From contig CAVZYA010000002.1 of NCBI GenBank assembly GCA_963779415.1, forward strand, positions 1,376,001 through 1,440,000: a stretch of 64,000 nucleotides of DNA. The letters run 5' to 3'. Positions 9,036 through 27,401 of this stretch are shown here, one piece after another; the stretch's first letter is position 1; the number at the start of each line of letters is the position of its first letter. The translations under genes were made by a program, and so were the position numbers. The DNA is from an uncultured Acidobacteriota bacterium. GTDB lineage: Bacteria > Acidobacteriota > Thermoanaerobaculia > UBA5066. The notes beneath the pieces are model-generated. The model searched no databases. It was not told the origin of the DNA and saw only the letters and a list, made by a program, of their open reading frames with translations.

Positions 9036-11474
9036 CTATCGAGAGGCCGTCGGGACGCCGATGCGGCGGAGGATGTCCTTGTAGCGGGGGTCGTCCCGGA
9101 GACTGTCCCAGGCGGGGTCGGCCACCATGTGGAGAAGCTGCGGCGTCCGTTCGTCGTAAGCCTTTTCGAGCCACTTCATTGCGAGGTCCTTCTCGCCGGC
9201 CTCCGCGTAGGCGCTGGCCAGGCCCTGCGCGCTCCCGCGGCCCGCCTGCACCTGCGCGGCGACGTAGTCGGCATGGGCCTTCAGGGCCGCCCGCGGACCG
9301 CCGGCACGGAGCCCGGTTTCGAGGACCCGGGTCCCCTCGCTGTCCAGCCCCACCCGAAGCTTGTATTCCGCGATTGCCTCGTCGTACTTCCCGGTTCGCC
9401 AGAGCGCTTCTCCCAGAAGGCCGTGCGCCATCCCGAGTTTCGGGAACGCCGCGGTGACGCGGCGGCCTTCGGTGATCACCTCGTCGTAGCGCCGGGCGGC
9501 CATCGTGTGGAACAGGACGACGACCTCGGCGAGGGGAGACGTCGGCTCGTAGCTCCTCCCGATCTTCACCTGCTCCAGGCTCTCCTCGAAGCGGCCGGTG
9601 ACCATCAGATAGTCGGCCCAGGCGTGCCGGGCCAGGAAATCGTGAGGGCTGAGCGCGACGGCTTCTCCGAGCCGAGCCCTGGCCGAGTCGAAGTTCCAGT
9701 CGTAGTAAAGCTCGATGCTCCCGAGGATGCCGTGGGCTTCTCCGAGCCGGTCGTCCAGGGCGAGAGCCTTCAGTGCGGCCTCCCGGGCGGCCGGAATGGC
9801 CTCGGCAGCGGAGGCCTGCCTGAAGAAGGCGAGGATGAAATTTGCCGCCGCCACGCCGCTCCAACCCCGGGCGAACGAGGGATCGAGGTCCACGGCGCTC
9901 TGGAACTCGGCGCGTGCCCTGTTCAGCTTGTCCGCCGAGATTGCCGTGAGCCCGAAAACGATCTGACGTCCCCTGAGGTACGCGTCCCAGGCCTCCGGGC
10001 GGACCCGCGCCGCCGCGTTCGTCTCCGGGGGCGGCGTCGGCCCGCGTCCTTCGGCCACCTTCAACCGGACCTCCTCGGCGATGTTCCGCGAAACGTCACT
10101 GAGAAGCCGGAGAACGTCGTGAAGGTCGCGGTCGTAGCTCTCGGCCCAGATGTGCTCGTCCGTCGAGCCCCGGATGAGCTGTGCGGTGATCCGGACCCGG
10201 TTCCCCTCGCGCAGTATGGAGCCCTCGATGAGGGCGTCGACGCCCAGCTCTTTCGCGATCTCCTTCAGAGGCTTCTTTTCACCCCGGTATTGCATGACGG
10301 AGGTTCGCGACGTGACGCGGAGGACCCCCAGCCTTGCGATCTCCGTGATGAGCGCGTCATGCATCCCGTCCACGAAGTAGTCCTGCGAGGCGTCGTGCAT
10401 CAGGTTGTCGAACGGCAGGACGGCAAGCGCTTTCAGGCTGGCCGAACCGGGCGACGCCGGTCCGGAGCTCTTCAGGCGCGGGATCAGGAGGAACGCCGCC
10501 GCGGCGACGAGCAGGGCGGCGCCCGCGGCGATCCAGATTCCCGGCCGGCGGGCCGAAGTCGGCGGGGCGGCCGCCGAGGGAGCTGTGGAGGGACGCGACG
10601 AAAGCTCCGCCTCGACCCCTTTCAGCTCGGCCGAGAGGTCGATCGCCGACTGCTGCCGCTGGCGCGGGTCCTTCTCGAGGCACCGCCGGACGATCCTCAC
10701 GAAGGCGGCTGGAAGGTCGGTTCGAATCCCTTCGAGCGCCGGAGGATCCGCCTTGAGAATCGAGGCCGCCACTTCGGCCTCGGTCGCACCGGCGAAGGGC
10801 CGCCGGCCGCTCGCCATTTCGTAGAGCATCGCGCCGAAGGAGAAGAGGTCGGACCGGGCGTCCGCCTTCTCGCCGCGGAGTTGCTCGGGGGCCATGTAGG
10901 GGACCGTCCCGAACACCTGTCCGGCCCGCGTCAGCGCCTCGGTTGCCGCCTCCGTCTCGACGTGGACCGAAGAGGAGGCGCGAACCTTCGCGAGGCCGAA
11001 GTCGAGCACCTTCACCCGTCCCTCGTCGGTGACCATGACGTTGGCCGGCTTCAGGTCCCGGTGGACGACGCCGTGGCCGTGGGCGGCGGCAAGGGCGTCG
11101 GCGATCGGAATCGCCCACTCGAGGATCTTCTTGATCGGAAGCCCGCCCGCCTCGATCAGCTCGGAAAGAGGGCGGCCGCGGATAAGCTCCATCACGAGGA
11201 GATGACGACCAGGAGAACCGGGGGAACCGGGGATCTCCTCGAAAGAGTAGATGGCGGCGATTCCCGGATGGTTCAGGATCGCGAGCGTGCGAGCCTCCCT
11301 CTCGAACCGCGCCTTCCTCTCTTCGTCCTCGAGGAAATTCCCCGGCAGGACCTTGATGGCGACTTCTCGTCCGAGTCGCATGTCACGGCCTCTCCAGACT
11401 TCTCCCATCCCTCCGGCCCCGAGGAGACCGAGCACCTCATAGGCGCCAAGACGGGACCCGGCGGCGAGCGCCAT
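9036..11474 (-). CDS. Hanks-type Ser/Thr protein kinase with TM, TolB-like and TPR domains
   Basis: LGAGGMGEV, VAIKVL, HRDLKPAN, DFGLA, GTVPYMAPE; LAVLPFDN domain; helical repeats. Confidence 0.95.
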   Translation of the reverse strand: MALAAGSRLGAYEVLGLLGAGGMGEVWRGRDMRLGREVAIKVLPGNFLEDEERKARFEREARTLAILNHPGIAAIYSFEEIPGSPGSPGRHLLVMELIRGRPLSELIEAGGLPIKKILEWAIPIADALAAAHGHGVVHRDLKPANVMVTDEGRVKVLDFGLAKVRASSSVHVETEAATEALTRAGQVFGTVPYMAPEQLRGEKADARSDLFSFGAMLYEMASGRRPFAGATEAEVAASILKADPPALEGIRTDLPAAFVRIVRRCLEKDPRQRQQSAIDLSAELKGVEAELSSRPSTAPSAAAPPTSARRPGIWIAAGAALLVAAAAFLLIPRLKSSGPASPGSASLKALAVLPFDNLMHDASQDYFVDGMHDALITEIARLGVLRVTSRTSVMQYRGEKKPLKEIAKELGVDALIEGSILREGNRVRITAQLIRGSTDEHIWAESYDRDLHDVLRLLSDVSRNIAEEVRLKVAEGRGPTPPPETNAAARVRPEAWDAYLRGRQIVFGLTAISADKLNRARAEFQSAVDLDPSFARGWSGVAAANFILAFFRQASAAEAIPAAREAALKALALDDRLGEAHGILGSIELYYDWNFDSARARLGEAVALSPHDFLARHAWADYLMVTGRFEESLEQVKIGRSYEPTSPLAEVVVLFHTMAARRYDEVITEGRRVTAAFPKLGMAHGLLGEALWRTGKYDEAIAEYKLRVGLDSEGTRVLETGLRAGGPRAALKAHADYVAAQVQAGRGSAQGLASAYAEAGEKDLAMKWLEKAYDERTPQLLHMVADPAWDSLRDDPRYKDILRRIGVPTASR

Positions 11475-11617
11475 TGTGGAAGTCGCTTTCGCGATTCTAG
11501 GTCCGCGGCAGCCGGCGAGCTCCGGAGCCTGCTCTTTCGGAGGCGTTCACGACCCGATAGCATCCGGCGAATGTCTCCCGTCCCCCATCGGACGTGGCGT
11601 TCGCCGAGGCCTCGCTG

Positions 11618-12427
11618 ATGCGCCCGCTCGATGTCGCCGTGGCGGCCGCCGAGGAGGCAGGGGCGCTCCTCATCGACTTCTTCGGCTCGCTCGATCCCGC
11701 GGACGTGGAGGAGAAGGCGAAGAACGACATGGTCTCCCGCGCGGACCGGGAGGCGGAGGCCGTCCTCCGGCACGTGCTTCTCGGCGCCTACCCTCATGAC
11801 TGCTTTCTCGGCGAGGAGACCGGGAAGAGCGGCGGCGCGGCAGGCGCTCCGGTCTGGATCGTCGACCCGCTCGACGGGACGGCGAACTTCATCCGCGGCT
11901 TTCCACACTGGGCCGTCTCGATCGCGCGGACGACGGGGGGGCTCGAGGGACCGCTCGAGGTCGGCGTCGTCTGGGATCCGGTCAAGGAGGACCTCTTCAC
12001 GGCCGCGGCGGGTGCCGGCGCCTGTCGAAACGGCGCCCGGCTCCTGGTCCCGGCGCGCGGGTCGCTCGACGGGGCGGCGGTCGCGACGGGCTTCCCGTTC
12101 CGCCAGCAGGGAAAGATCGACCTCTACCTGGCGATCTTCCGCGAGGTCTTTCTCGCGGCTCGCTCAATCCGCAGGGCCGGGAGCGCGGCGCTCGACCTCG
12201 CTTACGTCTCCGCGGGAATCTTCGACGGCTTCTTCGAGTTCGGCCTCTCGCCCTGGGACACGGCAGCGGGCGCGCTCCTGATCACTGAGGCCGGAGGGTT
12301 CGTCACCGACTTCGACGGGGGAGGGAGCTGGCGGACTCGCGGAAACGTCCTTGCCGGGTCGCCCGGAACGCACGAGGCCCTCCTCGAGGTCGTCCGGTCC
12401 CTCGGCGTCACCGAGTCGCGGCTCTAG
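11618..12427 (+). CDS. suhB: Inositol monophosphatase family protein
   Basis: GEE, WIVDPLDGTANF, RRAGSAALDL, WDTAAG; start either GTG 11594 or ATG 11618. Confidence 0.9.
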   Translation: MRPLDVAVAAAEEAGALLIDFFGSLDPADVEEKAKNDMVSRADREAEAVLRHVLLGAYPHDCFLGEETGKSGGAAGAPVWIVDPLDGTANFIRGFPHWAVSIARTTGGLEGPLEVGVVWDPVKEDLFTAAAGAGACRNGARLLVPARGSLDGAAVATGFPFRQQGKIDLYLAIFREVFLAARSIRRAGSAALDLAYVSAGIFDGFFEFGLSPWDTAAGALLITEAGGFVTDFDGGGSWRTRGNVLAGSPGTHEALLEVVRSLGVTESRL

Positions 12428-15675: not shown

Positions 15676-18168
15676 TTAGTCCTTCGCCTGGGCGACGGTC
15701 TCCTGCATCTGCTTCCGCTCCTCGGCCGTCAACTGGTTCGCTCCGAGCTTGAAGGTGAGCTTGTTGATCGTGCCGGTGAACGGGAACGGAGAATCGTAGC
15801 GATACTCCAGCAGCGCGACGCCAGTGCGCGTGTCCGATCCGATGTCTAAGGTCTCATCCTCCGGGAATGTGATCGGCGTCGTGTGCTCCATGATGTTCCG
15901 GGCCACTTCCTGGCCGTCCACGGAGAGCACGCCCGTCCCGCCCTTGCCCAGGCCCGGGCCGTCGGACTTGAAGTCGAAGACGATGGTATGCCTGCCGGCG
16001 GCGAGCTCCGGCCCGTCCCACACCGTGCGCTTGAGGTCGAGCAGGTTGTAGAGGAAGACCGGCTTGCCCCGGCCGATTCCGAACTCGCCCTTGCTGAGAA
16101 AGAGCCCGTAGCCGCCGAAGCGCCCCCCGTCGGTGACGATCATCCCTTCCGCGCCTCCATCGGGGATCGTGACCTCGGCGGTGATGGTGTACGACTTGTT
16201 CAGGATGCTCGGGGCGCCGCTGTTCGGGACGCCCGTCAGCGTTCCCGTGTAGGTGAAGACCGTTCGTCCCCCTGTGAGGTTCGGCTTCGGCGCGTTCCAG
16301 CGCGTCAGGGACGAGTTGTCGAGTGGCAGCACGTCATGCTTCTTCGCCTCCAGATAGAAGAGGGACTGCATCTGCTTGAGCTTCTCCGGCATCCGGGCTG
16401 CCAGGTCGTCGGATTCGGTGGGATCCTCCTTGACGTTGTAGAGCTCCCACTTGTACCCCGTGATCACGTCGGGCGGCTTGGCCGTGCTCAGCTCCCACGG
16501 GAGCGTCGCCGGGGTCGTGGCCGCCACCCAACCGTCGTGGTAGATGGCGCGGTTGCCGAGCATCTCGAAATACTGCGTGGTATGCCTTGTGGGCGCGTTG
16601 GCGTTCGCCTGGTCCCAAGAATAGGCCATGCTCACGCCGTCCATCGGGCGCTGCTTAATGCCGTCGAGCGTGTCCGGCAACGGGATGCCGCTCGCCTCGA
16701 GGATGGTCGGAGCAATGTCGATGAGATGGTGAAACTGGCGGCGGATGCCGCCCGCGTCGTTGATGTGGCCGGGCCACGACATGGCCATGCCCTGGGCGGT
16801 GCCGCCGAAGTGCGACGCCACCTGCTTCGTCCACTTGAACGGCGTGTCCATCGCCCACGACCAGGGTGCCGCAAAGTGCGGGAAGGTTCGCTCGGACCCC
16901 CAGAACTCGTACCAGAGAAGCTGGTCCTTGACGGGCACTTCAACGCCATTGAAGGTGGTGAACTCGTTCGGTGTGCCGTTGAGCATCCCTTCAGGGCTCG
17001 CGCCATTGTCGCCCGCGATGTAGATGATCAGGGTGTTGTCGAGCTGGCCGAGGTCTTCGACCGCCTGGATGACGCGACCGATCTCGTAATCGGTGTACGC
17101 GAGGTACGCCCCGTAGACCTCCGCCTGCTTGATGAACAGCTTCTTCTCCACGAACCCGAGGGAATCCCACTCCGGCAGCTCCTTCGGCCAGGGGGTCAGC
17201 TTGGCGTTCGGAGGCATGATGCCGAGCCGCTTCTGGTTGGCGAAGATCGTCTCGCGCAGCTTGTTCCAGCCGCCGTCGAAGAGGTGCATGTCGCTGATCT
17301 TCTTGATCCACTCCGGCGTCGGATGATGTGGCGAGTGGGTGCCGCCCGGCACGTAATAGACGAGGAACGGCTTTTCGGGCGCGATCTCCTTGAGTTCCTT
17401 CATGTACCGGATCGCCTCGTCGGCCATGGCGGTGGTCAGGTTCCAGCCCGGTTTGCCCTGGAACGGGTAGATGGCCGTCGTGTTGCGGTAGAGGTTCGGC
17501 TGCCACTGGCTGGCGTCGCCGCCGACGAAGCCGTAAAAGTACTCGAAGCCCATGCCGTTCGGCCACTGGTCGAAGGGCCCGGCCTGGGTCGATTGGTAGA
17601 AGGGCGTGTTGTGGTCCTTGCCGAACCACGACGTCGCGTACCCGTTCTCCCTCAGGATGGTGCCGATGGTGCCGTTCTCCTTCCGGATGACCGAGTCGTA
17701 TCCCGGGAATCCCGTCGCAATTTCGCCCACCACTCCGAAGCCGGCCACGTGGTGGTTGCGCCCGGTGATCAAGGCCGCGCGCGAGGGCGAGCAGAGCGAC
17801 GTGGAGTGGAAATTCGTGTAACGCAGCCCGTTCTTCGCGATGCGATCCATGGCCGGTGTCGGAACGACGCCGCCGAACGTGCCCGGCGCGCCGAACCCGC
17901 TGTCGTCGGTCATGATGAGGAGCACGTTAGGCGCGCCCTTCGGCGGCACGACGCGCGGTGCCCACCACGCTTTCGACTCCGAGGCCTTTTCCTTGATCAC
18001 CCCGCCGAATTTCGGATCGGGCGGCGGAAGCTGTTTCCCGCTGATCGTGGCGGTGGCGCCGGGCGAACCGGGCGTGCCGGTCACCTGCTGTGCGAGGCCG
18101 GACGAGGAAGAGAGCGTAAAGGCGACACCGGAGACCGCGAGGGCGACGACCAGCTTGGCTGCCTTCAT
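15676..18168 (-). CDS. Secreted arylsulfatase (Cys-type, formylglycine-dependent) with C-terminal LamG-like domain
   Basis: Signal peptide; NVLLIMTDD; SLCSPSRAALITGRNHH (CxPxR); AGGAG RBS. Confidence 0.93.
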   Translation of the reverse strand: MKAAKLVVALAVSGVAFTLSSSSGLAQQVTGTPGSPGATATISGKQLPPPDPKFGGVIKEKASESKAWWAPRVVPPKGAPNVLLIMTDDSGFGAPGTFGGVVPTPAMDRIAKNGLRYTNFHSTSLCSPSRAALITGRNHHVAGFGVVGEIATGFPGYDSVIRKENGTIGTILRENGYATSWFGKDHNTPFYQSTQAGPFDQWPNGMGFEYFYGFVGGDASQWQPNLYRNTTAIYPFQGKPGWNLTTAMADEAIRYMKELKEIAPEKPFLVYYVPGGTHSPHHPTPEWIKKISDMHLFDGGWNKLRETIFANQKRLGIMPPNAKLTPWPKELPEWDSLGFVEKKLFIKQAEVYGAYLAYTDYEIGRVIQAVEDLGQLDNTLIIYIAGDNGASPEGMLNGTPNEFTTFNGVEVPVKDQLLWYEFWGSERTFPHFAAPWSWAMDTPFKWTKQVASHFGGTAQGMAMSWPGHINDAGGIRRQFHHLIDIAPTILEASGIPLPDTLDGIKQRPMDGVSMAYSWDQANANAPTRHTTQYFEMLGNRAIYHDGWVAATTPATLPWELSTAKPPDVITGYKWELYNVKEDPTESDDLAARMPEKLKQMQSLFYLEAKKHDVLPLDNSSLTRWNAPKPNLTGGRTVFTYTGTLTGVPNSGAPSILNKSYTITAEVTIPDGGAEGMIVTDGGRFGGYGLFLSKGEFGIGRGKPVFLYNLLDLKRTVWDGPELAAGRHTIVFDFKSDGPGLGKGGTGVLSVDGQEVARNIMEHTTPITFPEDETLDIGSDTRTGVALLEYRYDSPFPFTGTINKLTFKLGANQLTAEERKQMQETVAQAKD

Positions 18169-18204: not shown

Positions 18205-18710
18205 TCAGAGATCGGAGCGGGTCTCGAGCAGTCTCTTCCGCGTGTAGGCGATCAGGCCGCCGGCGTCGATGATCGCCTGCCGGGCTGCCGGGAGCGGGAC
18301 GACGGCCAACGACTCTTCCCGGTCGTCCGGTTGATGACGCGGTCGCCCGCGACCTCGAGCTCGTCGCCGACCGACGCCTCGAGGTCCGGGGGCCGTGACG
18401 ACGTGAAGGCCGAGGTTGATCGCGTTCTGGAGGAAGATCCGGGCGAAGCTCCTTCGCCACGATCGTCAGCTCGTACCCCTTGAGCGCGGAGACGGCCTGC
18501 TCGCGGGAGGAGCCGCAGCCGAAGTTCTTCCCGCCGACGAGGATCGACCCGGCGGGGAACTCCTTCGCCCTCAGCCGCGCGTTGAAGCCGGCGTCGTCGG
18601 CGAACGCGAACTGCGGCGTCTCGGTCGGGAGGACGGTCGCCATGTAGCGGCCGGGGTAGATGACGTCGGTGGAGACGTCGTCGCCCGAGGACGCAGACGA
18701 CCTTCGCCAT
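18205..18710 (-). CDS. Aconitase-family small subunit (LeuD/HacB-like), frameshifted in assembly
   Basis: Fragments GDDVSTDVIYPGRYMAT, GKNFGCGSSREQA, FARIFLQNAINLG, IIDAGGLIAY across frames. Confidence 0.85.
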
Positions 18711-18711
18711 C

Positions 18712-20017
18712 TCAGCGCGCTCCCTTCCGCGGGTCGGTGATGACGCCCGCCACGGCCGAGGCCGCGGCGACGGCGGGAGAGCAGAGGTAGACCTCGGAGG
18801 TCGGGGTTCCCCATCCGCCCCTTGAAGTTCCGGTTCGTCGTGGAGAGGGCGACCTCGCCGTCCCCGAGCGCCCCCTCGTGGACGCCGAGGCAGGGGCCGC
18901 AGCCGGCGTTCATGACGACGGCGCCCGCCGCGCATGAAGTCGGCGATGTAGCCTCTTCGCCAGCGCCTCCTGCTAGATCCTGCCCGGAGGCGGGGAAGAC
19001 GAGCATCCGGGTCCCCGCGGCGACCTTCTTCCCGCGGAGGACGTCGGCCGCGGCGGCGAGGTCGTCGAGCCGGCCGTTCGTGCAGGAGCCGATGACGACC
19101 TGGTGGACCCTGACCCCTTCGACCGCCTCGACCGGCTTGACGTTGTCGACGGTGTGCGGGCAGGCGATCTGCGGCCCGAGAGCGGAGACGTCGACCTCGA
19201 GGACCCGCTCGTAGACCGCGTCGGCGTCCGGGGACGACGAGGTCGAGCGGGTCCGTGACGCCCGCTTCCTCGCGGAGGTAGCGGAGCGTCTCGTCGTCGG
19301 CGGGGACGATGCCCGACGTGGCCCCCGCCTCGACCGACATGTTGCAGAGGACGAGGCGGCCCGAGGTCGGACATCTTCCGGATCGTCTCGCCGTGGAACT
19401 CGAGCACCCGGAAGTTCGCCCCCTGCGCGCGTGAGCTTGCCGATCAGGTGGAGGATCAGGTCCTTCGGGCCGACGAAACGGCGGGAAGTCGCCCGTTCAC
19501 GACGACCTTGATCGTCGTCGGCACCTCGACGTTCAGGGCGGCGCCGAGCGCCCAGACGCTCGCCATCTCGGTGGCGCCGATGCCGAACGCGAAAGCGCCG
19601 AGCGCCCCGTGGCTCGTCGTGTGCGAGTCGGTCCCGACGACGACCTGGCCCGGGCCGGACGTAGCCGTACTCGGGAAGGATCTGGTGGCAGATGCCGCCG
19701 TGTCGCCCCGGATGTCGTGGAACCGGGCGATCCCGTGCTGCGGCGACGAACTGCGCGGACTTTCTTCTGGTTCGTCGCGGTCTTCGGCGACTCGGCCGGG
19801 ATCCGGTGGTCGAAGATGATCGCGATCCGCGACGGGTCCCAGACCTTCGGCGTCGCGCCCGGTCCCCTTCGTAGATCTCGAGGAACTGGTTGATGACGAG
19901 CGCGGCGTTCTCGTGCGACATCGCGAGGTCGACGCGCGGCTCGACGACGTCCCCCGCCTTCGCGCCGCGGGCGCCCGCGGCGCGGGCCAGGATCTTTTCG
20001 ACGACGGTCTTGCCCAT
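18712..20017 (-). CDS. Aconitase-family large subunit (LeuC/HacA-like), frameshifted in assembly
   Basis: [43 protein letters not shown] (three Fe-S Cys). Confidence 0.88.
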
Positions 20018-20046
20018 GTGGTGCTCTCCCTGTCGACGGATCTCCT

Positions 20047-21271
20047 TCAGACGACTTCCGCTCGATCGCTCTTCCTCAGCTCGGCGATCTCCTCCGCCGC
20101 GTAGCCGAGGCCGCCGAGGATCTCCTCCGTGTGCTGGGCCCCGAGGCGCGGAGGCGGCGCGTCGATACGCGCCCGGGCGTCCTTCGAGAACTGCGCGGTC
20201 AGGTTGAAGAGGGGGAGGTCGCCGATCGCCGGGACGCGTCGACGGTCCGCAAGCGTCCTCCGGTGGGCGACCTGCGGCTGCGCGAGCGCCTCCGCGAGCG
20301 TGAGGATCGCGCCCGAGGGGACGTCGTGCGCGTTGAGCGCCTCGACCCACTCGGCCGTCGGCCTGCTCCGCGAGCTTCTCCTCGAGGAGCGGCGTCAGAG
20401 CCTGCCGGTTCTTCTTCCGCGTGTCGCGCTCGGCGAAGCGCGGGTCGGCCTTCAGCTCCGGCACGCCGAGGACGTCGGCCACCGCCTCCCACTGCTCCTG
20501 CTTGTTGGCGGCGATGTTGATCGTAGCCGTCCTTCGTGCGCGAACGTCCCCGACGGCGCGGCGGTGAAGTTGTCGTTCCCGAGCAGCGACCGGCGGCTGC
20601 CCGCCGATCAGGAGGTTCGCGGCGACCCAGCCCATCAGCGGCATGATCGAGTCGAGAAGAGCGACGTCGATCATCTGCCCCTCGCCCGTCCTCTCGCGGT
20701 GGAAGAGGGCGGCCATGACGGCGAAGGCCGCGTTCAGCCCTCCGACGGTGTCGCAGACCGGAAATCCGGCGCGGAGCGGGTTCAGCCGCTCGTCGCCGTT
20801 GACGGCCATCTCGCCGGAGAGCCCCTGGATGATCTGGTCGTAGGCGGGCTTCTCGCGCGTCGGGGCCGGTCTGGCCGAAGCCGGAGATCGCGCAGTAGAC
20901 GAGGCGCGGGTTGACCTCGCCAGGCCTCGTACGCGAGGCCGAGCCGCTTCATGACGCCGGGGCGGAAATTCTCGACGAGGACGTCGGCCTGTCGCGAGCG
21001 AGCCTCCGGAAGACCTCGCGCCCCTCGGCGCGTCTTCAGGTTCAGGGTCACCGACTTCTTGTTCGCGTTCTGGGCGAGGAAGCTCGTCCCCATCAGCTCC
21101 TTGTTCAGCTTCGGGACGTTCCCCAGCTTCCGCGCGAGGTCGCCGTCTGTCGGGTTCTCGATCTTGATCACCTCGGCCCCGAGGAGGGCGAGGTGGAGCG
21201 TCGCGAAGGGGCCCGAGAGGACGTTCGTCAGGTCGAGGACGCGGACTCCCTCGAGGAGCCTTCTTCGTCAT
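20047..21271 (-). CDS. Class III CoA-transferase (CaiB/BaiF), frameshifted in assembly
   Basis: EGVRVLDLTNVLSGPFATLHL, VIKIENP, NANKKSVTLNLK, ENFRPG, PAYDQIIQGLSG. Confidence 0.88.
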
Positions 21272-22220
21272 GCCGTCCCCCGCGCCGGGGCGGCCGCTGC
21301 GGGACCGGCCCGGTCTTGTGGACGCGCCCCGGCATCTCGCGGCCGAAGAAGGCCGCGACGTCGCGGGCGACGTCCGATCAGGGCGGCGAGGTCGACGTCG
21401 CGTGCGGAGATCCATCCGCTGGAGGGCGTGGACGAGGTCTTCGGTCGCGACGTTCCCGGCCGCGACCTTCGTGAACGGGCAGCCGCCGAGCCCGGCGAAG
21501 GAGGACTCGAACGACGTGACGCTCCGGCGCGCGAGGGCGGCGAAGACGTTCGCCATCCCGACCCCGTAGGTGTCGTGGAAGTGGCAGGCCGCCTCGATCC
21601 CGGGCGCGAGGGCGAGGAGACCGCGAGTAGAGGCGGGTCACCTGCGCCGGGTGCGCGTGCCCGGCCGTGTCGGCGAGGCTGATCTGCAGGAGCCCCGCGT
21701 CGACGTAGGCGCGGGCAGATACCGAGAACCCGCTCCTCGGGAACCGGCCCTTCGTAAGCCGCAGCCGAAGGCCGACTGGACGGAGACCTGGACGGGCTTT
21801 CCGGCGGCGAGCGGCCTCATTCGCCATCGCAAGGATCCGCCGCGTCGCCTCCTCGGTCCCCATGCCCGTGTTCTTCCGGCTGTGCGTCTCGCTGGCGGAG
21901 ACGCCCATGCAGAACAGCTCGACTCCGCGGCGAGGCCGCGCTCGAGCCCCTTCTCGTTCAGGACGAGAGCCCGAGAGGAGGGCGCGTCCGTCCCGGCGCG
22001 CCGTCGCGTCCTGAGGCGGCGGAAGAGCGCATCGGTGTCGGCCATCTGCGGGACCTTCCCCGGGTGGACGAAGGAGCCCACCTGCACGACGTCGAGGCCC
22101 GAAGCCGAGAGCCGCGCGATCCAGTCGGCCTTCGTCTCCGTCGGCACGACGCGTCTTCTCCACCTGCAGGCCGTCGCGAGGCCCGACCTCGTGGAGGACG
22201 ATCTTCCGCGTCGGATCCAC
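21268..22220 (-). CDS. HMG-CoA-lyase-like DRE-TIM metallolyase, frameshifted in assembly
   Basis: EVGPRDGLQ, VPQMAD, SASETHSRKN, SLADTAG, HFHDTYG, GLGGCPF, GNVATEDL. Confidence 0.88.
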
Positions 22221-22232
22221 GTCGGCGGCGCC

Positions 22233-23358
22233 TCAGAGGGCCCGGGCGACGGCTTCGCCCATCTCGAGCGTCGTCGCTTTTCCGCCCATGTCGTACGTCC
22301 GGACCTTCCCCTCGGCGACGACCTTCGCGACGGCCGCCTCGACGCGGCGCCCCTTCTCCCCCTCGCCGAGCCAGTCGAGCATCATCTTCGCGGCGAGGAT
22401 CGTGGCGAGCGGGTTGACCTTGTACTGCCCGGCGTACTTCGGCGCCGAGCCGTGCGACGGCTCGAAGACCGCCAGCTTCTCGCCGATGTTCCCCGAGCAG
22501 CCGAAGCCGAGGCCGCCCACCATCTGGGCCGCGAGGTCCGAGATGATGTCGCCGTAGAGGTTGGGCGCCACGAGGACGTCGTACTCGAACGGGTTCTTGA
22601 GGAGCCACATGCAGATGGCGTCGACGTTCGCGTCGTCCGTCGCGATGTCCGGGAACTCGGCGGCGACCTTTCGTCGCCTCCTCGAAGAAGAGGCCGTCGG
22701 ACGCGCGGACGACGTTCGCCTTGTGGACGATCGTCACCTTCTCGCCGCCCGTGCTTCCGTGGCGAACTCGTAGGCGGCCCGGGCGATCCGCGAGGAGCCC
22801 TTCCGCGTGTTCACCTTGCAGGAGATCGCGTACTGCGTCGCGCGGGCAGCGGGGCGAAGGGCGCGAACGGCCTTCGAGAGCTTCGCGAGGACGCCCGAGA
22901 GCTCGAGCGGGACGGGCGAGAACTCGACCCCCGCGTAGAGGTCCTCGGTGTTCTCGCGGAAGATGACGAGGTCGATCCCGTCCTTGAGGTTGAGCGGATT
23001 CCCCGGGTAGGCCTTGCAGGGCCGCAGGCAGACGTAGAGGTCGAAGAGCTGCCGCATCCGGACGATCGGGGAGCGGTAGGTGAGCCCCTTCCCCTTCAGC
23101 TCCGGGACGAGCTCTTCCTCGGCCGCGCTGACCGGCTTCGAGGTGATCGCCCCGAACATCGCCGCGTCGACGTTCCGGAGGAGGTCGACGGTCCGCTGCG
23201 GGGAACGCGTCCCCCTCCCGGCGCCAGAACTCCCAGCCGATGTCGCCGTGCGGGTAGACGGCGTCGAGCTTCAGCGCGTCGAGGACGAGCCGCGCCGCCT
23301 CCATCACCTCGACGCCGACGCCGTCTCCCGGCAGCCAGGCGATCCGGTACTGACTCAT
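22233..23358 (-). CDS. Isocitrate/isopropylmalate dehydrogenase family, homoisocitrate-dehydrogenase-like; frameshifted in assembly
   Basis: LPGDGVGVEV, FGAITSKP, YRSPIVRMRQ, RENTEDLY, HKANV, NLYGDIISD, FEPSHGSAPKYAG. Confidence 0.88.
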
Positions 23359-23424
23359 CGAAAAGCTCCCCCGCGCCCCTTCGGGAGGCGCCTTCCGAAG
23401 CGTCGCCGGGCCACGATCCATGGT

Positions 23425-23446
23425 CCATGAGCCAGATGGCTCATGG
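23425..23446. promoter_or_regulatory. Perfect palindrome, candidate operator upstream of the dehydrogenase-lyase operon
   Basis: CCATGAGCCA-GA-TGGCTCATGG: 10-bp arms with a 2-nt spacer. Confidence 0.5.
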
Positions 23447-23470
23447 CCGGAGCGCCCCTTGGTTGCGACC

Positions 23471-24953
23471 TCACCAGGGGAGGCCGCGGATCTCCCGCGC
23501 GCGGCGGTAGACGGCGTCGTACGCGGAGGCGGAACGGTCCCACGAGAAGTCCTGCGCCATGCCGTTCGCGATCAGGCGGCTCCACGCGCCGGGGTGATGG
23601 AAGAGCCCCTGCGCCCGGAGGATCTCGGCGGCCAGCTCGTGCGAGGCGGGGTTCTCGAAGACGAAGCCGGTGCCGCGGTCGAGGTTTTGGCCGTCGAAGC
23701 CCGCGACGGAGTCCGCGAGACCGCCGACGCGCCGGACGATCGGAGGCGTCCCGTAGGCGAGCGAGTACATCTGGTTCAGGCCGCACGGCTCGAAGCGCGA
23801 CGGCATGACGTAGGCGTCCGATCCGGCCTCGATCTTGTGGGCCAGCTCCTCGCTGTAGCCGACGAAGGCGGCGGCGCGCCCGGGGTGCTGCGCCGCGAAC
23901 CGGCGGATCGCATGCTCGAGCTGCGGCTCGCCCGTGCCGAGAAGGACGATCCGGACGCCCCGGCGGATCAGCTCGGGCGCGGCCCCCATGACGAGGTCGA
24001 AGCCCTTCTGGTCGGTCAGCCGGCCGACGGAGCCGAGGACCATTCCGGTGTCGTCCGGGTCGAAGCCGGCGATCCGGCAGAGGTCTCGCCGGCAGAGCGG
24101 CTTGCCCGAGAGGTCGGTGAGCGAGTAGCGCGCGGCGATGGCGTCGTCGACGGCGGGATTCCAGACGTCCGTATCGACGCCGTTCAGGATTCCGACGAGC
24201 CGGTCGCTCCGCATCCGGAGAATCCCGTCGAGGCCGGCGCCTCCTTCGCGCGTCGTGATCTCCCAGGCGTAGGTGGGCGAGACCGCCGTGATCATGTCGG
24301 CCGCCACGATCGCCCCCTTGAGGAGGTTGACGGCACCGGCGAACTCGATCGCCCCGCCCGTCCACGCCTCCGGCGGGAGGCCGAGCGCCCGGAACTCCTC
24401 CGGGCCGTAGACCCCCTGGTAGGAGACGTTGTGGATCGTCAGGACCGAAGCGACGTCGTCGAACCAGCGGTCGCGCCAGCTGCTCCAGGCCCCCAGCATG
24501 ACGGCGAGAGCGGGGTGCCAGTCGTGCGTGTGGAGGATCTGGGGGCGCCGACCCATCCGCCTCATCGCCTCGATCGCGGCCCGGACGAAGACCGTGAACC
24601 GCCAGAGCCCGTCGTCGCGCCCCGAGGCGTCCGGCGCATAGATCCGGGTCCGGTGGAAGAGCGGGTCGTGCGCCACGAAGAAGACGGGGACCGTGCTTCC
24701 CGGAAGCGTTCCGCGGAGAAGGCCGATCGTGTAGGCGCGGCCGAGGACGGAGACCTCGAACGGGGGGATCGCCTGCTCGGGCCAGGTCGAGCCTCCGGCG
24801 ATACCAGTCCGCGGTCTCGAGGTGGAACGGGAGGAAGACGTCGACGTCGTGCCCGCGGGCCGCCTGGGCCTTCGGGAGCGCGCCGACGACGTCGCCGAGG
24901 CCTCCCGTCTTCGCGAATGGAACGCACTCGGCAGAGAGGTGCGTGATCCTCAC
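23471..24953 (-). CDS. glgA: Glycogen synthase, frameshifted near 24790
   Basis: SAECVPFAKTGGLGDV, HTHDWH, TIHN, GILNGVD, MPSRFEPCGLNQM, VGGLADSV. Confidence 0.92.
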
Positions 24954-25815
24954 GCGGCCCCTTGCGCCGCCGGCCGCGGACTCCCAGAGAACCGCGGCGT
25001 AGCCGACGACGCGCGAGAGGTCGCCGAAGGCGTCGCCCGAGTCCCCCTGCGCGACGATTCGGGGCGGCGCGGCCCCGAGGATCTCGAGCGCCCGGAGGAG
25101 CGCCGTCGCGGGGAGGACGCCGCACATGGAGATCCGATCCCTCCCGAGGATCGTGTCGAAGAAGGCCTGCGGCTCGCCCGCTTTGAGCGCGGCGAGGGCG
25201 CGGTCGTCCTTCACGCGGTTCTGCGTCCGGGGAAGGTAGTGGTTGAGGTCGGAGGAGACGACGATCGCCACGACGCTCGCCGCGCTCGCCGGCGCGGTGG
25301 ACGGCCCCGGCGACGGCGTCGCCGACCGCGAGGCAGAGAGCGAGATCGGGCTCGCCGATGGAGACGCAGACGATCGAGAGGTCCGGGACCGCCTTCTGGA
25401 GGAACGGGAGGATCACCTCGATCGAATGCTCGTCGCGGTGTGCCGCCTCGTCCTCGCGGATCTCGCGGCAGAGGGAGAGGAGGTCGGCCGCGAAGGCCGC
25501 GTTCGCGGGGACGTCGCCGAGAGGCGTCCTCCATGCGGCGGAAGGCGACAGGGCCGCCGCGGCGCCGGCCCCGTGATGGTTCGGGCCGAGGAGGAGGACG
25601 GTGGACGGCCACGCGACGGAGGCGACCCCCGCCGCGGCGATGCCGCCGGAGTAGACGTGACCGGCGTGGGGGAGGAGGAGCGCCCGGAAGCGCTCCGCCG
25701 GGACGCGGGGAGAGGAGTGCGCGGCGAGAAGCCGCCCGACCGTGGCCGAGAGGCGCGCGGGCTCTCCCTCGTAGAACGTGCCGGCGACCGCGGAGGGCCG
25801 GACGGATCTCTTCAA
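24950..25815 (-). CDS. AmmeMemoRadiSam system protein B (MEMO1 family), frameshifted
   Basis: VRPSAVAGTFY, PHAGHVYSG, GPNH, EHSIEVILPFLQ, SSDLNHY, SMCG, VVGYA. Confidence 0.88.
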
Positions 25816-26653
25816 TTCACGAGGACGGTCGCCGCATGGCGTCTCGCCCCGGCGGCGACGGTGATGGTCGCGGTCCCGGGCCCTTCGGCGCGGACGACGC
25901 CGTTCGCGACCGAGGCGACCTTCGGGTCGGAGGTCGTCCAGACGAGCGCCGGCTCCTCGACGAGCGCCCCGGTCGAGTCCTTCACGACGGGGTTGATCCG
26001 CTGCGTGTCCCCCGTCTTCAGGATGAGGGTGAGCGGGGCGATGTCGAAGGAGGCGATTTCGCGAAAGAGGACGCGCAGCTCGCACCCGGCCGACAGCTCG
26101 CTGCCGAGGCTGGCCGTCACGGCGGCCTTTCCCTCGGCGACCGAGGTGACGAGGCCCGTATCCGTCACCGCGACGACCTTCGGGTCGGAGGTCGCCCACT
26201 TCGCCGGGATCGCCACCGGCTGTCCCTTCGAGTCGCGGGAGTCGATGGTGAGGTTGAGGGTCGTTCCGGCGGGACCGACGAGCGTGGCGCGGGGCGGGAT
26301 GACGGACATCGAGGAGACGTCGACGACCTCGACCGAGGCCGTTCCGGAGAGCGGCGCCCAGCTTGCCGACGATCTGCGTCCGGCCCGGGCCGACGGACTT
26401 CACGATCCCCGAGGGCTCCACCGTGGCCACTTTCGGGTTGGAGCTTTCCCACGTGACGTTCTGCGTCGGGAACCGGCTTCCCCTTCTTGTCGAGGACCTC
26501 GGCCTTGACGGAGACGTGGCGGTCCTTACCGAAGACCAGGATCTTGGGCGGCGTCACCCGCACCTCGGCCGGCTTCGGCCTGCACGCGGAGAGGAGGACG
26601 CCCAGGAAAAGAAGCGCCGCGATGCCGCGGCGCGGCGTGCTGGCTTTCCTCAT
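25812..26653 (-). CDS. Lipoprotein with Ig-like (Big_2) repeats, frameshifted
   Basis: LLSAC lipobox; repeated W-x-(T/S)SDPKV(A/V)xV...G...G motifs. Confidence 0.78.
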
Positions 26654-26667
26654 GTCGTCGGCCGATT

Positions 26668-27401
26668 CTAGCCCGGAGGAGGCCCCTCTTCCTCCTCTTC
26701 GGGGCTCTCGGGCGCGGACGGAGGACCGAAGGCGCGCTCCTCGATGAGCGCCGCGCGGCGCCGGTGCGCGGCGGGATGGGCGAGGTAGTACGCCGGACCC
26801 GGGATCATCGCCGCGAGCCATGCGGCCTGCGGACCTCGTCAGGCGCGCGGCCGGGACGCCGAAGGTGTTTCGGGCGGCGGCCTCGATCCCGAAGACCCGC
26901 TCGCCCCACTCGACGGCCGAGAGGTAGTGCTCGAGGATCTTCTCCTTCGGGACGAGGGCGTCGAGGACGAGGGCGATGGCGGCCTCGCGCCCCTTCCGGA
27001 AGAGCGACCGGTCGGAGGAGAGCCAGAGGTTCTTCGCGAGCTGCTGCGTGATCGTCGAGGCCCCGTGCCTCCACCGCCCTTTCCGGCCGGCGATCTTCCG
27101 GTTCCACCGGGCCGCTTCGCGGACGGCCTCCCAGTCGATCCCCCGGTGCTGGAAGAAGCGCGCGTCCTCGGCGGCGACGACGGCCTCGACGAGGGCGGGC
27201 GCGACGTCGCGGAGGGGAACGGGGCGCCGGTCGATGGCGTCGCTCTTCCCGGCCGCGCGAAGCGCCGCCTGCCGCGCCCGGATGAAGGCCGTCGTCCGCG
27301 GGCACGCGCCACCGGAGGGCCACGATCGCCGGAAGCGGCACGAACCAGAGCGCCCCCGCGAGAGCGAGCGCGACCGCGAGAAGAGCGCCGGGACGCTTCA
27401 G
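26668..27401 (-). CDS. mtgA: Monofunctional peptidoglycan transglycosylase, frameshifted
   Basis: AAEDARFFQHRGID, GASTITQQLAKNL, RKGRE, EWGERVFGIEAAA; start uncertain. Confidence 0.85.

Follow-up and report, generated by a model that had tools for sequence, protein, structure and literature searches.

We describe here a cassette of five genes on the minus strand of a 64,000-nucleotide stretch of DNA (the window) from an uncultured Acidobacteriota bacterium of the Thermoanaerobaculia lineage UBA5066 (assembly GCA_963779415.1, contig CAVZYA010000002.1, positions 1,376,001 to 1,440,000 of the forward strand). The cassette encodes a dehydrogenase, an acyl-CoA lyase, a CoA-transferase and the two subunits of an aconitase-family hydro-lyase, and we consider it, with a probability of roughly 0.55, to be a single synthase-free metabolic unit that acts upon a 2-substituted malate, mainly in the cleavage direction. 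Directly observed are the gene families themselves, their co-conservation, a mutually exclusive replacement of the lyase and CoA-transferase by another enzyme, and the independence of the cassette from the housekeeping pathways of its genome. This genome, G000, consists of 3 contigs and is 92% complete; the other G-numbers used below denote genomes and the L-numbers denote loci with which it was compared. The five genes are as follows:

22233..23358, minus strand: NADP-type beta-decarboxylating dehydrogenase (DH), Iso_dh family, 6 frame breaks
21272..22220 (ends approximate), minus strand: HMGL-family acyl-CoA lyase, a paralogue of 3-hydroxy-3-methylglutaryl-CoA (HMG-CoA) lyase, 12 frame breaks
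20047..21271, minus strand: family III (CaiB/BaiF) CoA-transferase (CoAT), 9 frame breaks
18712..20017, minus strand: archaeal-type LeuC/HacA-like large subunit of an aconitase-family hydro-lyase, 14 frame breaks
18205..18710, minus strand: LeuD/HacB-like small subunit with the specificity loop YMAT, 4 frame breaks

Together they span 18205-23358, separated by intergenic gaps of approximately 0-30 nt. A first-pass annotation of the same DNA had reported just such a tight, co-oriented cluster; its positions are exact, its families agree with the matches obtained here, and both of the strings it quoted, FGAITSKP...YRSPIVRMR and YMAT, occur in the translations. It had also stated correctly that the cluster includes neither LeuA nor a homocitrate synthase: no PF00682 synthase is found there, and the leuA gene of the genome lies approximately 275 kb away.

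The five genes are conserved together elsewhere, both among relatives and across phyla. The 41 relatives compared include G025 and G030, which are unpublished and have neither orthologue. DH orthologues of at least 73% identity are encoded by 23 of the 41 and CoAT orthologues of at least 70% identity by 20. The DH and CoAT genes are found on one contig within 3 kb of each other in 16 relatives and on different contigs in 4, two of which are fragmented assemblies (G006 and G018) and two of which represent a real split (G019 and G024). In a scan across phyla, restricted to one genome per species, 80 loci were found, and in 19 the DH reaches at least 71% identity. Ten of these 19 encode all five genes, two encode DH, lyase and CoAT up to the end of the contig, and two exhibit the alternative layout described below. 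According to their record titles, cassette loci derive from Acidobacteriota (Vicinamibacteria, Thermoanaerobaculia and others), Latescibacterota, Bacteroidota, Eisenbacteria and a Hyphomicrobiales metagenome-assembled genome (MAG). Gene order is variable as well: LeuCD precedes DH, lyase and CoAT in L022, CoAT and lyase are divergent in L049, and L018 has a 4-kb insert. Such variation is what functional linkage, rather than inherited synteny, would be expected to produce.

The most informative variation concerns the two genes in the center of the cassette. At L021 (Aminicenantes) and L024 (Anaerolineae), a single ICL/PEPM-family gene lies between DH and LeuC and replaces both the lyase and the CoAT. 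If this is a true replacement, the DH-bearing relatives without CoAT should carry another lyase, and upon checking, all three of them (G010, G022 and G033) were found to have the arrangement DH-PEPM-LeuC-LeuD. The PEPM orthologue is present in exactly these 3 of the 41 relatives, where the best match to the cassette lyase is a liu-type paralogue only 39-42% identical. Consequently, the 23 DH-bearing relatives divide into 20 with lyase plus CoAT and 3 with PEPM, none having both and none having neither. In a maximum-likelihood tree inferred quickly from 63 DHs, at least two switches between the modules are needed on well-supported branches; the tree was built with IQ-TREE from tblastn matches with at least 330 aligned residues, at least 44% identity and no stops, and it left out shorter or broken DH matches, including that of the window. 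The PEPM protein carries a KRCGH lyase motif and most closely resembles the carnation petal death protein (1zlp, 188 bits, versus 154 and 147 bits for methylisocitrate lyases), the former being a (2R)-alkylmalate lyase; with 220-223 bits, it remains below the NCBIfam prpB cut-off of 354. The simplest reading of this exchange is that lyase and CoAT jointly do the same job as the single PEPM lyase, namely the conversion of a 2-substituted malate to acetate and a 2-oxoacid. The mutual exclusivity of the two modules suggests a net reaction that is CoA-neutral. The PEPM lyase of G033 (L098, family f2) is also 93% identical to that of G010 (L100, family f1), and the corresponding DHs cluster with an SH-aLRT of 98, which points to a recent transfer of the entire DH-PEPM-LeuCD version between the two lineages.

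The cassette is separate from the housekeeping pathways of its genome. G000 encodes canonical leuC, leuA and leuB at C2:1665597-1674955 with IlvD and IlvA alongside, its LeuB (C2:1673918-1674955) scoring 409 bits on PF00180, while an intact E. coli-type NADP-dependent isocitrate dehydrogenase (ICDH), AcnA, citrate synthase and DapB are all encoded elsewhere. A liu cluster at approximately 822-828 kb of C1 contains carboxylase subunits, an enoyl-CoA hydratase and its own HMG-CoA lyase. With the housekeeping copies thus located, the first-pass inference that the operon is something other than ordinary LeuBCD with an unrelated HMG-CoA lyase is supported. G000, G003, G010 and G022 encode IlvA, IlvD and a complete leu operon. 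No IlvD was detected in three carriers, G033 (97% complete, 2 contigs), G049 and G050, which therefore could complete no branched-chain amino acid. The PEPM-type genomes G049 and G050 encode no PF00682 protein at all, and hence neither a LeuA-type synthase nor an HMGL-family lyase. G049 likewise lacks citrate synthase, LeuB, a monomeric isocitrate dehydrogenase (IDH) and any other Iso_dh protein, and none of its other proteins passes the cut-off of the aconitase family. LysW-type lysine biosynthesis was ruled out in the 10 genomes checked, as LysW was detected in none of them while the named controls matched, and DapB is present in both G000 and G033. A role of the cassette in isoleucine, leucine or lysine biosynthesis is accordingly unlikely.

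The DH forms a distinct clade of beta-decarboxylating dehydrogenases characterized by the long loop FGAITSKP...YRSPIVRMRQ. Its orthologue P0001 matches PF00180, and the best NCBIfam match is AksF2 (332.7 bits, cut-off 540), with lower scores for AksF (283.3, cut-off 500) and leuB TIGR00169 (188.8, cut-off 353.2); none of the models for ICDH, homoisocitrate dehydrogenase (HICDH) or isopropylmalate dehydrogenase (IPMDH) reaches its cut-off. The proposal that the DH is nearer to HICDH than to LeuB is supported by its scores, which are indeed nearer to ICDH/HICDH than to LeuB; the HICDH models nonetheless remain below cut-off, and valine occupies the position of the HICDH arginine. In the alignment with Thermus HICDH (3asj), this valine stands opposite Arg85, the specificity residue of that enzyme, with one arginine located a single residue past that position and another before the serine of the loop. 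When compared with ICDH (6ltf), the serine of the S-x-N loop is retained and the asparagine is replaced by isoleucine; the equivalent Ser113 and Asn115 of E. coli ICDH form the substrate loop, and Lys344 and Tyr345 the 2'-phosphate motif. The motif HGSAPKY is found in every member of the DH clade examined, the NADP-ICDH of G000 reads HGTAPKY with the Lys-Tyr pair in both, and the NAD-type enzymes compared (HICDH and IPMDH-family sequences) carry APDI instead. By this motif, the DH is probably NADP(H)-type. Two simple identities are not supported: that of HICDH, with its equivalog models missed and no arginine at the specificity position, and that of LeuB, with TIGR00169 missed, no NAD-type motif and a location outside the leu operon. 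The AlphaFold model of the DH (pLDDT 89) was matched about equally by Foldseek to NAD-IDH, HICDH and NADP-ICDH folds. The fold does not separate ICDH, HICDH and IPMDH, the top matches being 37-41% identical with TM scores of 0.78-0.86. One further DH (73% identity, loop YRSPIVRMRQ) is encoded at L027, on a contig titled as a Methanomassiliicoccales archaeon MAG, where its neighbors encode an acyl-CoA dehydrogenase and an enoyl-CoA hydratase; the archaeal label reflects either horizontal transfer or a binning error.

Both hydro-lyase subunits score slightly higher with isopropylmalate/citramalate isomerase than with homoaconitase when compared with the M. jannaschii proteins, the intact LeuC orthologue L013:10709-11995 matching at 7e-121 versus 1.4e-110 and LeuD at 1.5e-28 versus 1.6e-24. 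They belong to the isomerase families PF00330 and PF00694 and score above the cut-offs of NF001614 (543.7 versus 385) and TIGR02087 (109.3 versus 108.95). A methanogen-type homoaconitase HacAB is not supported (HacA_Meth 463.5 versus 550, HacB 96.8-108.5 versus 230, loop YMAT). Alignment of the small-subunit loops yields YLVY for an isopropylmalate isomerase (3vba), YLRT for a homoaconitase (2pkp), YNLT for the P. horikoshii protein (1v7l) and YMAT for the window, so the loops given in the first-pass annotation for LeuD (YLVY) and HacB (YLRT) were accurate. All 21 of the cassette-type LeuD orthologues extracted have [Y/F]MAT. The loop contains alanine in place of the HacB arginine (Arg26, a specificity residue) and ends in threonine, as does that of HacB.

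The lyase orthologue P0002 belongs to the same subfamily as HMG-CoA lyase (NF004283, 273.9 bits, cut-off 246), its closest solved relative is the B. subtilis HMG-CoA lyase 1ydo (1.9e-61), and it carries EVGPRDGLQ, HxH and GLGGCP, the catalytic motifs of that enzyme. Against synthase models it scores 41-66 bits (cut-offs 414-950), indicating that it is not a DRE-TIM synthase. All of its best 120 homologues are nameless or labelled HMG-CoA lyase, one cultured carrier being Mesoterricola sediminis, with a lyase of 73% identity. An ordinary HMG-CoA lyase of leucine catabolism was nonetheless rejected by context: methylcrotonyl-CoA carboxylase genes never adjoin the cassette lyase in the loci examined, and the true liu cluster has its own lyase, which scores 402.8 bits on NF004283 and is 39-42% identical to that of the cassette. 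The CoAT orthologue P0003 is a member of the CoA_transf_3 family and is closest to the human succinate-hydroxymethylglutarate CoA-transferase 9br6 (5.1e-76), with 4ed9, YfdE and Frc among its other structural matches. It reaches no NCBIfam equivalog cut-off, and its CoA donor and acceptor are therefore not named by these models.

The surroundings of the cassette are variable. In the window, an intact sulfatase-family gene encoding 830 residues with a signal-like N-terminus (15679-18168, minus strand) lies directly downstream of LeuD; in its place, the congener G003 has a racemase gene and others, such that the downstream flank is not syntenic. Elsewhere, single loci are flanked by 2-oxoacid:ferredoxin oxidoreductase (OFOR) and acyl-CoA:acetate CoA-transferase genes (upstream in L020), a LIV-type ABC transporter (L024), ACAD/ETF genes (L027 and L030), or AcnX or proline-racemase-type genes (L021 and L026). 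In G024, the separate lyase-CoAT pair (L014, 7012-8436) is followed on the same strand by genes for a DcuC-family carboxylate carrier, an M14 peptidase and an enolase-superfamily protein.

The order of the reactions, the cycling of CoA, the direction and the substrate are all matters that we infer from these features. The NADP(H)-type DH would interconvert a 2-oxoacid, CO2 and NADPH with a 3-substituted malate, which LeuCD would isomerize to the 2-substituted malate. CoAT would then place CoA on the latter, most economically from the acetyl-CoA freed in the following step, in which cleavage of the CoA ester by the HMGL-type lyase would yield acetyl-CoA together with a 2-oxoacid that has one carbon fewer. 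With CoA cycled in this way, the net reaction would convert a 2-substituted malate to acetate and a 2-oxoacid, following a soluble-CoA version of the logic of citrate lyase. All of the steps should be near equilibrium and reversible in principle, and the main run would presumably be the shortening of 2-oxoacids derived from amino acids, with the reductive carboxylation serving as an electron sink. Cleavage is favored as the direction because a CoA-free lyase variant exists, the DH motif is NADP(H)-type and there is no synthase. In the first-pass annotation, a lyase and CoA-transferase pair had been placed where a synthase-like step would be expected, with a reversible and possibly catabolic run; this remains the better reading.

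None of the five genes has an open frame in the window, and the condition of this copy accordingly requires explanation. A plain open-frame reading (table 11) returns an open reading frame (ORF) of 1118 residues that proved to be a chimera of three frames. The breaks were therefore counted by frameshift-aware dynamic-programming alignment of intact orthologues to the window DNA, which located 45 over the five genes (DH 6, lyase 12, CoAT 9, LeuC 14 and LeuD 4). If these breaks are real, the genes would be decaying pseudogenes in this organism. Such a view draws upon the clustering of the breaks, which reach a density of approximately 9 per kb in the cassette versus 0 to approximately 1 per kb in its neighbors, and upon the many other genes of the window and the genome that are intact, including the sulfatase gene, the genes past 27.4 kb and the long ORFs in the rest of the window. 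However, surplus bases account for 42 of the 45 (single in 37 cases, double in 5) and deletions for 3, which is the opposite of the bias toward deletions found in bacterial pseudogenes. Once frame-corrected, the proteins are also well preserved, with identities to congener G003 of 338/366 (DH), 242/303 (lyase), 327/390 (CoAT) and 128/160 (LeuD), and of 349/415 to G021 in the case of LeuC. A relative-rate check against G017, G021 and G012 gave 84.1, 82.8 and 84.1% for the corrected DH versus 80.9, 80.9 and 83.3% for the intact DH of G003, while the corrected CoAT is 81.1-82.7% identical to three of four outgroups, compared with 76.9-77.9% for the CoAT of G003. Against the fourth, G004, the window protein is slightly more distant than that of G003. 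There is no excess change on the branch of the window, and the corrected DH and CoAT are as close to the outgroups as the intact G003 copies, or closer.

The patch of breaks is furthermore wider than the cassette, extending over 18314-27304 of the window, with 1 break in glgA (23474-24949) and 1-2 in each of the two upstream genes D and E. The cassette of G003 (L011), likewise a 3-contig assembly, is intact except for one frame break inside LeuC (11081-12310). Of the 12 indel places listed (12 of 88), 8 read without the surplus base, or with the missing base, in contigs from the public runs X1, X2, X3 and X5, although these contigs derive from relatives (word shares of at most 0.15), so that the bases of the source strain are not provable from them. 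The public runs listed for the window include no RNA run. The patch suggests a low-coverage or unpolished stretch of the assembly, and because the corrected proteins are no more diverged than their intact orthologues, the breaks very probably reflect a locally unpolished consensus instead of gene decay; real pseudogenes are improbable. On this view, the true sequence would contain five open frames of about 372 (DH), 316 (lyase), 399 (CoAT), 429 (LeuC) and 164 (LeuD) residues.

Several other functions could be assigned to the same five genes. The layout mimics LeuA/CimA-LeuCD-LeuB, and LeuCD is closest to isopropylmalate/citramalate isomerase, both of which would fit an anabolic, energy-saving stand-in for citramalate or isopropylmalate synthase that leads from acetyl-CoA to 2-oxobutyrate (for isoleucine) or 2-oxoisocaproate (for leucine) without hydrolysis of the thioester. 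In a review (PMC8307300), (R)-citramalyl-CoA lyase and a CoA-transferase are indeed discussed as an indirect, reversible route from acetyl-CoA and pyruvate to (R)-citramalate. Such a role is very doubtful here, given that G000, G003, G010 and G022 already possess IlvA, IlvD and the leu operon, that no IlvD was detected in carriers G033, G049 and G050, and that a LeuA-type protein is missing from G049 and G050, and LeuB from G049. The NADP-type motif of the DH also differs from the NAD-type APDI of IPMDH-family and HICDH sequences, and by our estimate, made from the citrate lyase equilibrium, the CoA-free lyase variant would be thermodynamically poor for condensation. A catabolic assignment that deserves greater weight, though we still regard it as unlikely, is the front half of the aminoadipate pathway operating in reverse for lysine breakdown, in which 2-oxoadipate, CO2 and NAD(P)H would yield homoisocitrate, homocitrate, homocitryl-CoA and finally 2-oxoglutarate and acetyl-CoA. 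We saw no canonical enzymes of this route in G000, where a dedicated isomerase and DH would consequently not be redundant; the best NCBIfam matches of DH and LeuC are AksF2 (332.7 bits) and HacA (463.5 bits), CoAT is closest to succinate-glutarate/HMG CoA-transferases, the LeuD loop ends in threonine like that of HacB, and the DH loop has one arginine a residue past the HICDH position and another before the serine. At L020, the upstream OFOR and acyl-CoA:acetate CoA-transferase could carry 2-oxoglutarate onward. The first-pass annotation had put forward this homocitrate/2-oxoadipate route as its specific example, and this assignment is not supported. All HICDH and homoaconitase models are far below cut-off, valine and alanine occupy the arginine positions of Thermus HICDH and HacB, the Lys-Tyr motif is unlike the HICDH and IPMDH sequences compared, LeuC and LeuD both score higher with isopropylmalate/citramalate isomerase than with homoaconitase, and the replacing PEPM enzyme is closest to the petal death protein, a 2-alkylmalate lyase. 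Nor are lysine-catabolic genes conserved beside the cassette in the loci examined.

Somewhat less likely again is a citrate module in which LeuCD would function as aconitase, DH as NADP-ICDH, and CoAT plus lyase as a soluble-CoA citrate lyase, permitting either the ATP-free cleavage of citrate formed from 2-oxoglutarate by reductive carboxylation in glutamate breakdown or a thioester-conserving synthesis of citrate. The closest solved relatives of lyase and CoAT act upon HMG-CoA and HMG, of which citryl-CoA and citrate can be regarded as the 3-carboxy analogues, and the DH has both the ICDH-like Lys-Tyr motif and the serine of the S-x-N loop. Additional support could be drawn from a paralogous group of DHs, clade B, encoded at L035 and L038 (Anaerolineae), L045/L043 (Verrucomicrobiae), L058 (a closed MAG chromosome), L047 and L048. 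Next to them lie either citryl-CoA-lyase-like and succinyl-CoA-ligase-like genes or fused ACL-like genes, together with a small HD-domain gene and one or two aconitase-like genes; a PrpD-like or OFOR gene is present at some of the loci. These clusters may constitute a tricarboxylate (TCA-like) module that is possibly undescribed. Neither a second citrate synthase nor a second isocitrate dehydrogenase was found in G042, G046 and G047, in which a single additional aconitase-family gene adjoins leuB of G046. L020 even repeats the L058 layout (CoA-transferase, OFOR, DH and so forth) with lyase plus CoAT substituted for the ACL-like pair. However, clade B is only 45-65% identical to the cassette DHs and forms a separate clade (SH-aLRT 100 in the quick tree), and what its contexts show concerns paralogues of the cassette DH. 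The argument that these genomes have no ICDH besides the clade B DH fails in Labilibaculum, a holder of this DH that also has a monomeric IDH, and holds only for MAGs of uncertain completeness and for the closed MAG chromosome G042. Moreover, nearly every carrier studied, like G000 itself, possesses AcnA and a normal ICDH, which would make a second pair redundant, the DH has isoleucine at the ICDH asparagine, and the LeuD loop is without an arginine for the third carboxylate.

For a synthase-free cassette cleaving a 2-substituted malate, a small or branched alkyl side chain is the leading candidate, albeit a tentative one, with citramalate arising from 2-oxobutyrate or isopropylmalate from 2-oxoisocaproate. 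In Chloroflexus aurantiacus, an (R)-citramalyl-CoA lyase (EC 4.1.3.46) and a succinyl-CoA:(R)-citramalate CoA-transferase (EC 2.8.3.20) are known. An alkyl group is supported because of this citramalate precedent, the arginine-less LeuD loop, the isoleucine at the ICDH asparagine and the likeness of the replacing lyase to the petal death protein. Homocitrate (from 2-oxoadipate) is possible at lower odds, because it alone of the candidates is not redundant in G000, yields the best family-model matches and could employ the extra arginines in the DH loop. Citrate (from 2-oxoglutarate), for which the analogy with HMG, the ICDH-like features of the DH and the gene contexts of clade B speak, is a less likely substrate than either, and any other side chain appears improbable.

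A number of observations weigh against the reading of a single malate-cleaving cassette. If the breaks in the window's own copy are real, then this organism is without the function. In G019 and G024, lyase-CoAT is held apart from DH-LeuCD, so the modules are separable; 5 of the 19 cross-phylum DH loci have no partner genes in the available DNA, 2 of these ending at a contig edge; and no flanking family is common to the 10 five-gene loci surveyed. Acetyl-CoA as the donor of CoA is purely inferred. The clues to specificity also conflict, as the arginine-less LeuD and the DH isoleucine fit an alkyl group and the clade B contexts fit tricarboxylates, with lyase and CoAT closest to enzymes acting upon HMG, of which citrate is the 3-carboxy analogue. 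Lastly, alkyl and citrate substrates would be partly redundant with the LeuBCD, AcnA/ICDH and liu enzymes of G000, which would therefore favor homocitrate.

If the cassette does function as proposed, then the textbook chain extension by synthase, isomerase and dehydrogenase has a common reversible sibling that requires no synthase and entails no net loss of a thioester. Its carriers would include hundreds of uncultured genomes of Acidobacteriota, Bacteroidota, Chloroflexota, Latescibacterota and others, in which the genes are labelled merely 'HMG-CoA lyase', 'CoA transferase' or 'LeuCD'. Peptide-degrading bacteria of soils and sediments would gain a built-in electron sink as well as extra acetyl units, and metabolic reconstructions of these environments would change with regard to amino-acid fermentation, CO2 incorporation and acetate yield. 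The lyase/CoAT and petal-death-protein-like versions should catalyze one and the same net reaction, and the cassette could serve pathway engineering as a reversible, ATP-free module for the addition or removal of C2 units. In its broadest form, the idea is quite speculative: reverse 2-oxoacid elongation, consisting of NADPH-dependent carboxylation, isomerization and a split into a shorter 2-oxoacid and acetate or acetyl-CoA, may be widespread and undescribed, with the C-C cleavage solved in at least two ways (lyase/CoAT and PEPM) and possibly in a third, ATP-dependent manner by ACL/CCL-like enzymes encoded beside the paralogous clade B DHs.

The cassette resembles several known systems in part. 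Full-text literature searches, outside the scope of which lay approximately 1.7 million PMC articles and most subscription journals, turned up neither the operon nor any homocitryl-, isopropylmalyl- or HMGL-type citryl-CoA chemistry. The LeuA, CimA and homocitrate synthase modules share with it the isomerase and beta-decarboxylating dehydrogenase families, a tight operon and 2-/3-substituted malates, whereas the cassette has no DRE-TIM synthase, relies instead upon an HMGL lyase plus CoAT or one ICL/PEPM lyase, carries an NADP-type DH motif and is found with or without the biosynthetic pathways. LiuE/YngG-type HMG-CoA lyases belong to the same NF004283 subfamily and share the motifs EVGPRDGLQ, HxH and GLGGCP, although the cassette lyase has a lower score (273.9 versus 402.8 bits), only 39-42% identity and no liu context. 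The petal death protein and other ICL/PEPM lyases, such as methylisocitrate and 2,3-dimethylmalate lyase, correspond to the replacing enzyme of G010, G022, G033, L021 and L024, but no such gene exists in the window and the replacing enzyme scores just 188 bits to 1zlp. The Chloroflexus citramalyl-CoA pair is similar in that an HMGL-family lyase and a family III CoA-transferase act reversibly upon a 2-substituted malate; to our knowledge, it has not been reported with a dedicated LeuCD and dehydrogenase. A parallel in terms of proposed logic is the citrate lyase CitDEF, in which each cleavage frees the acyl donor that charges the following substrate molecule and the net outcome is likewise an acid converted to acetate and a 2-oxoacid. 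The protein families are unrelated in this case, there being no CitE, CitF or ACP in the cassette, and if CoA is cycled as we suppose, free CoA would take the place of the prosthetic group.

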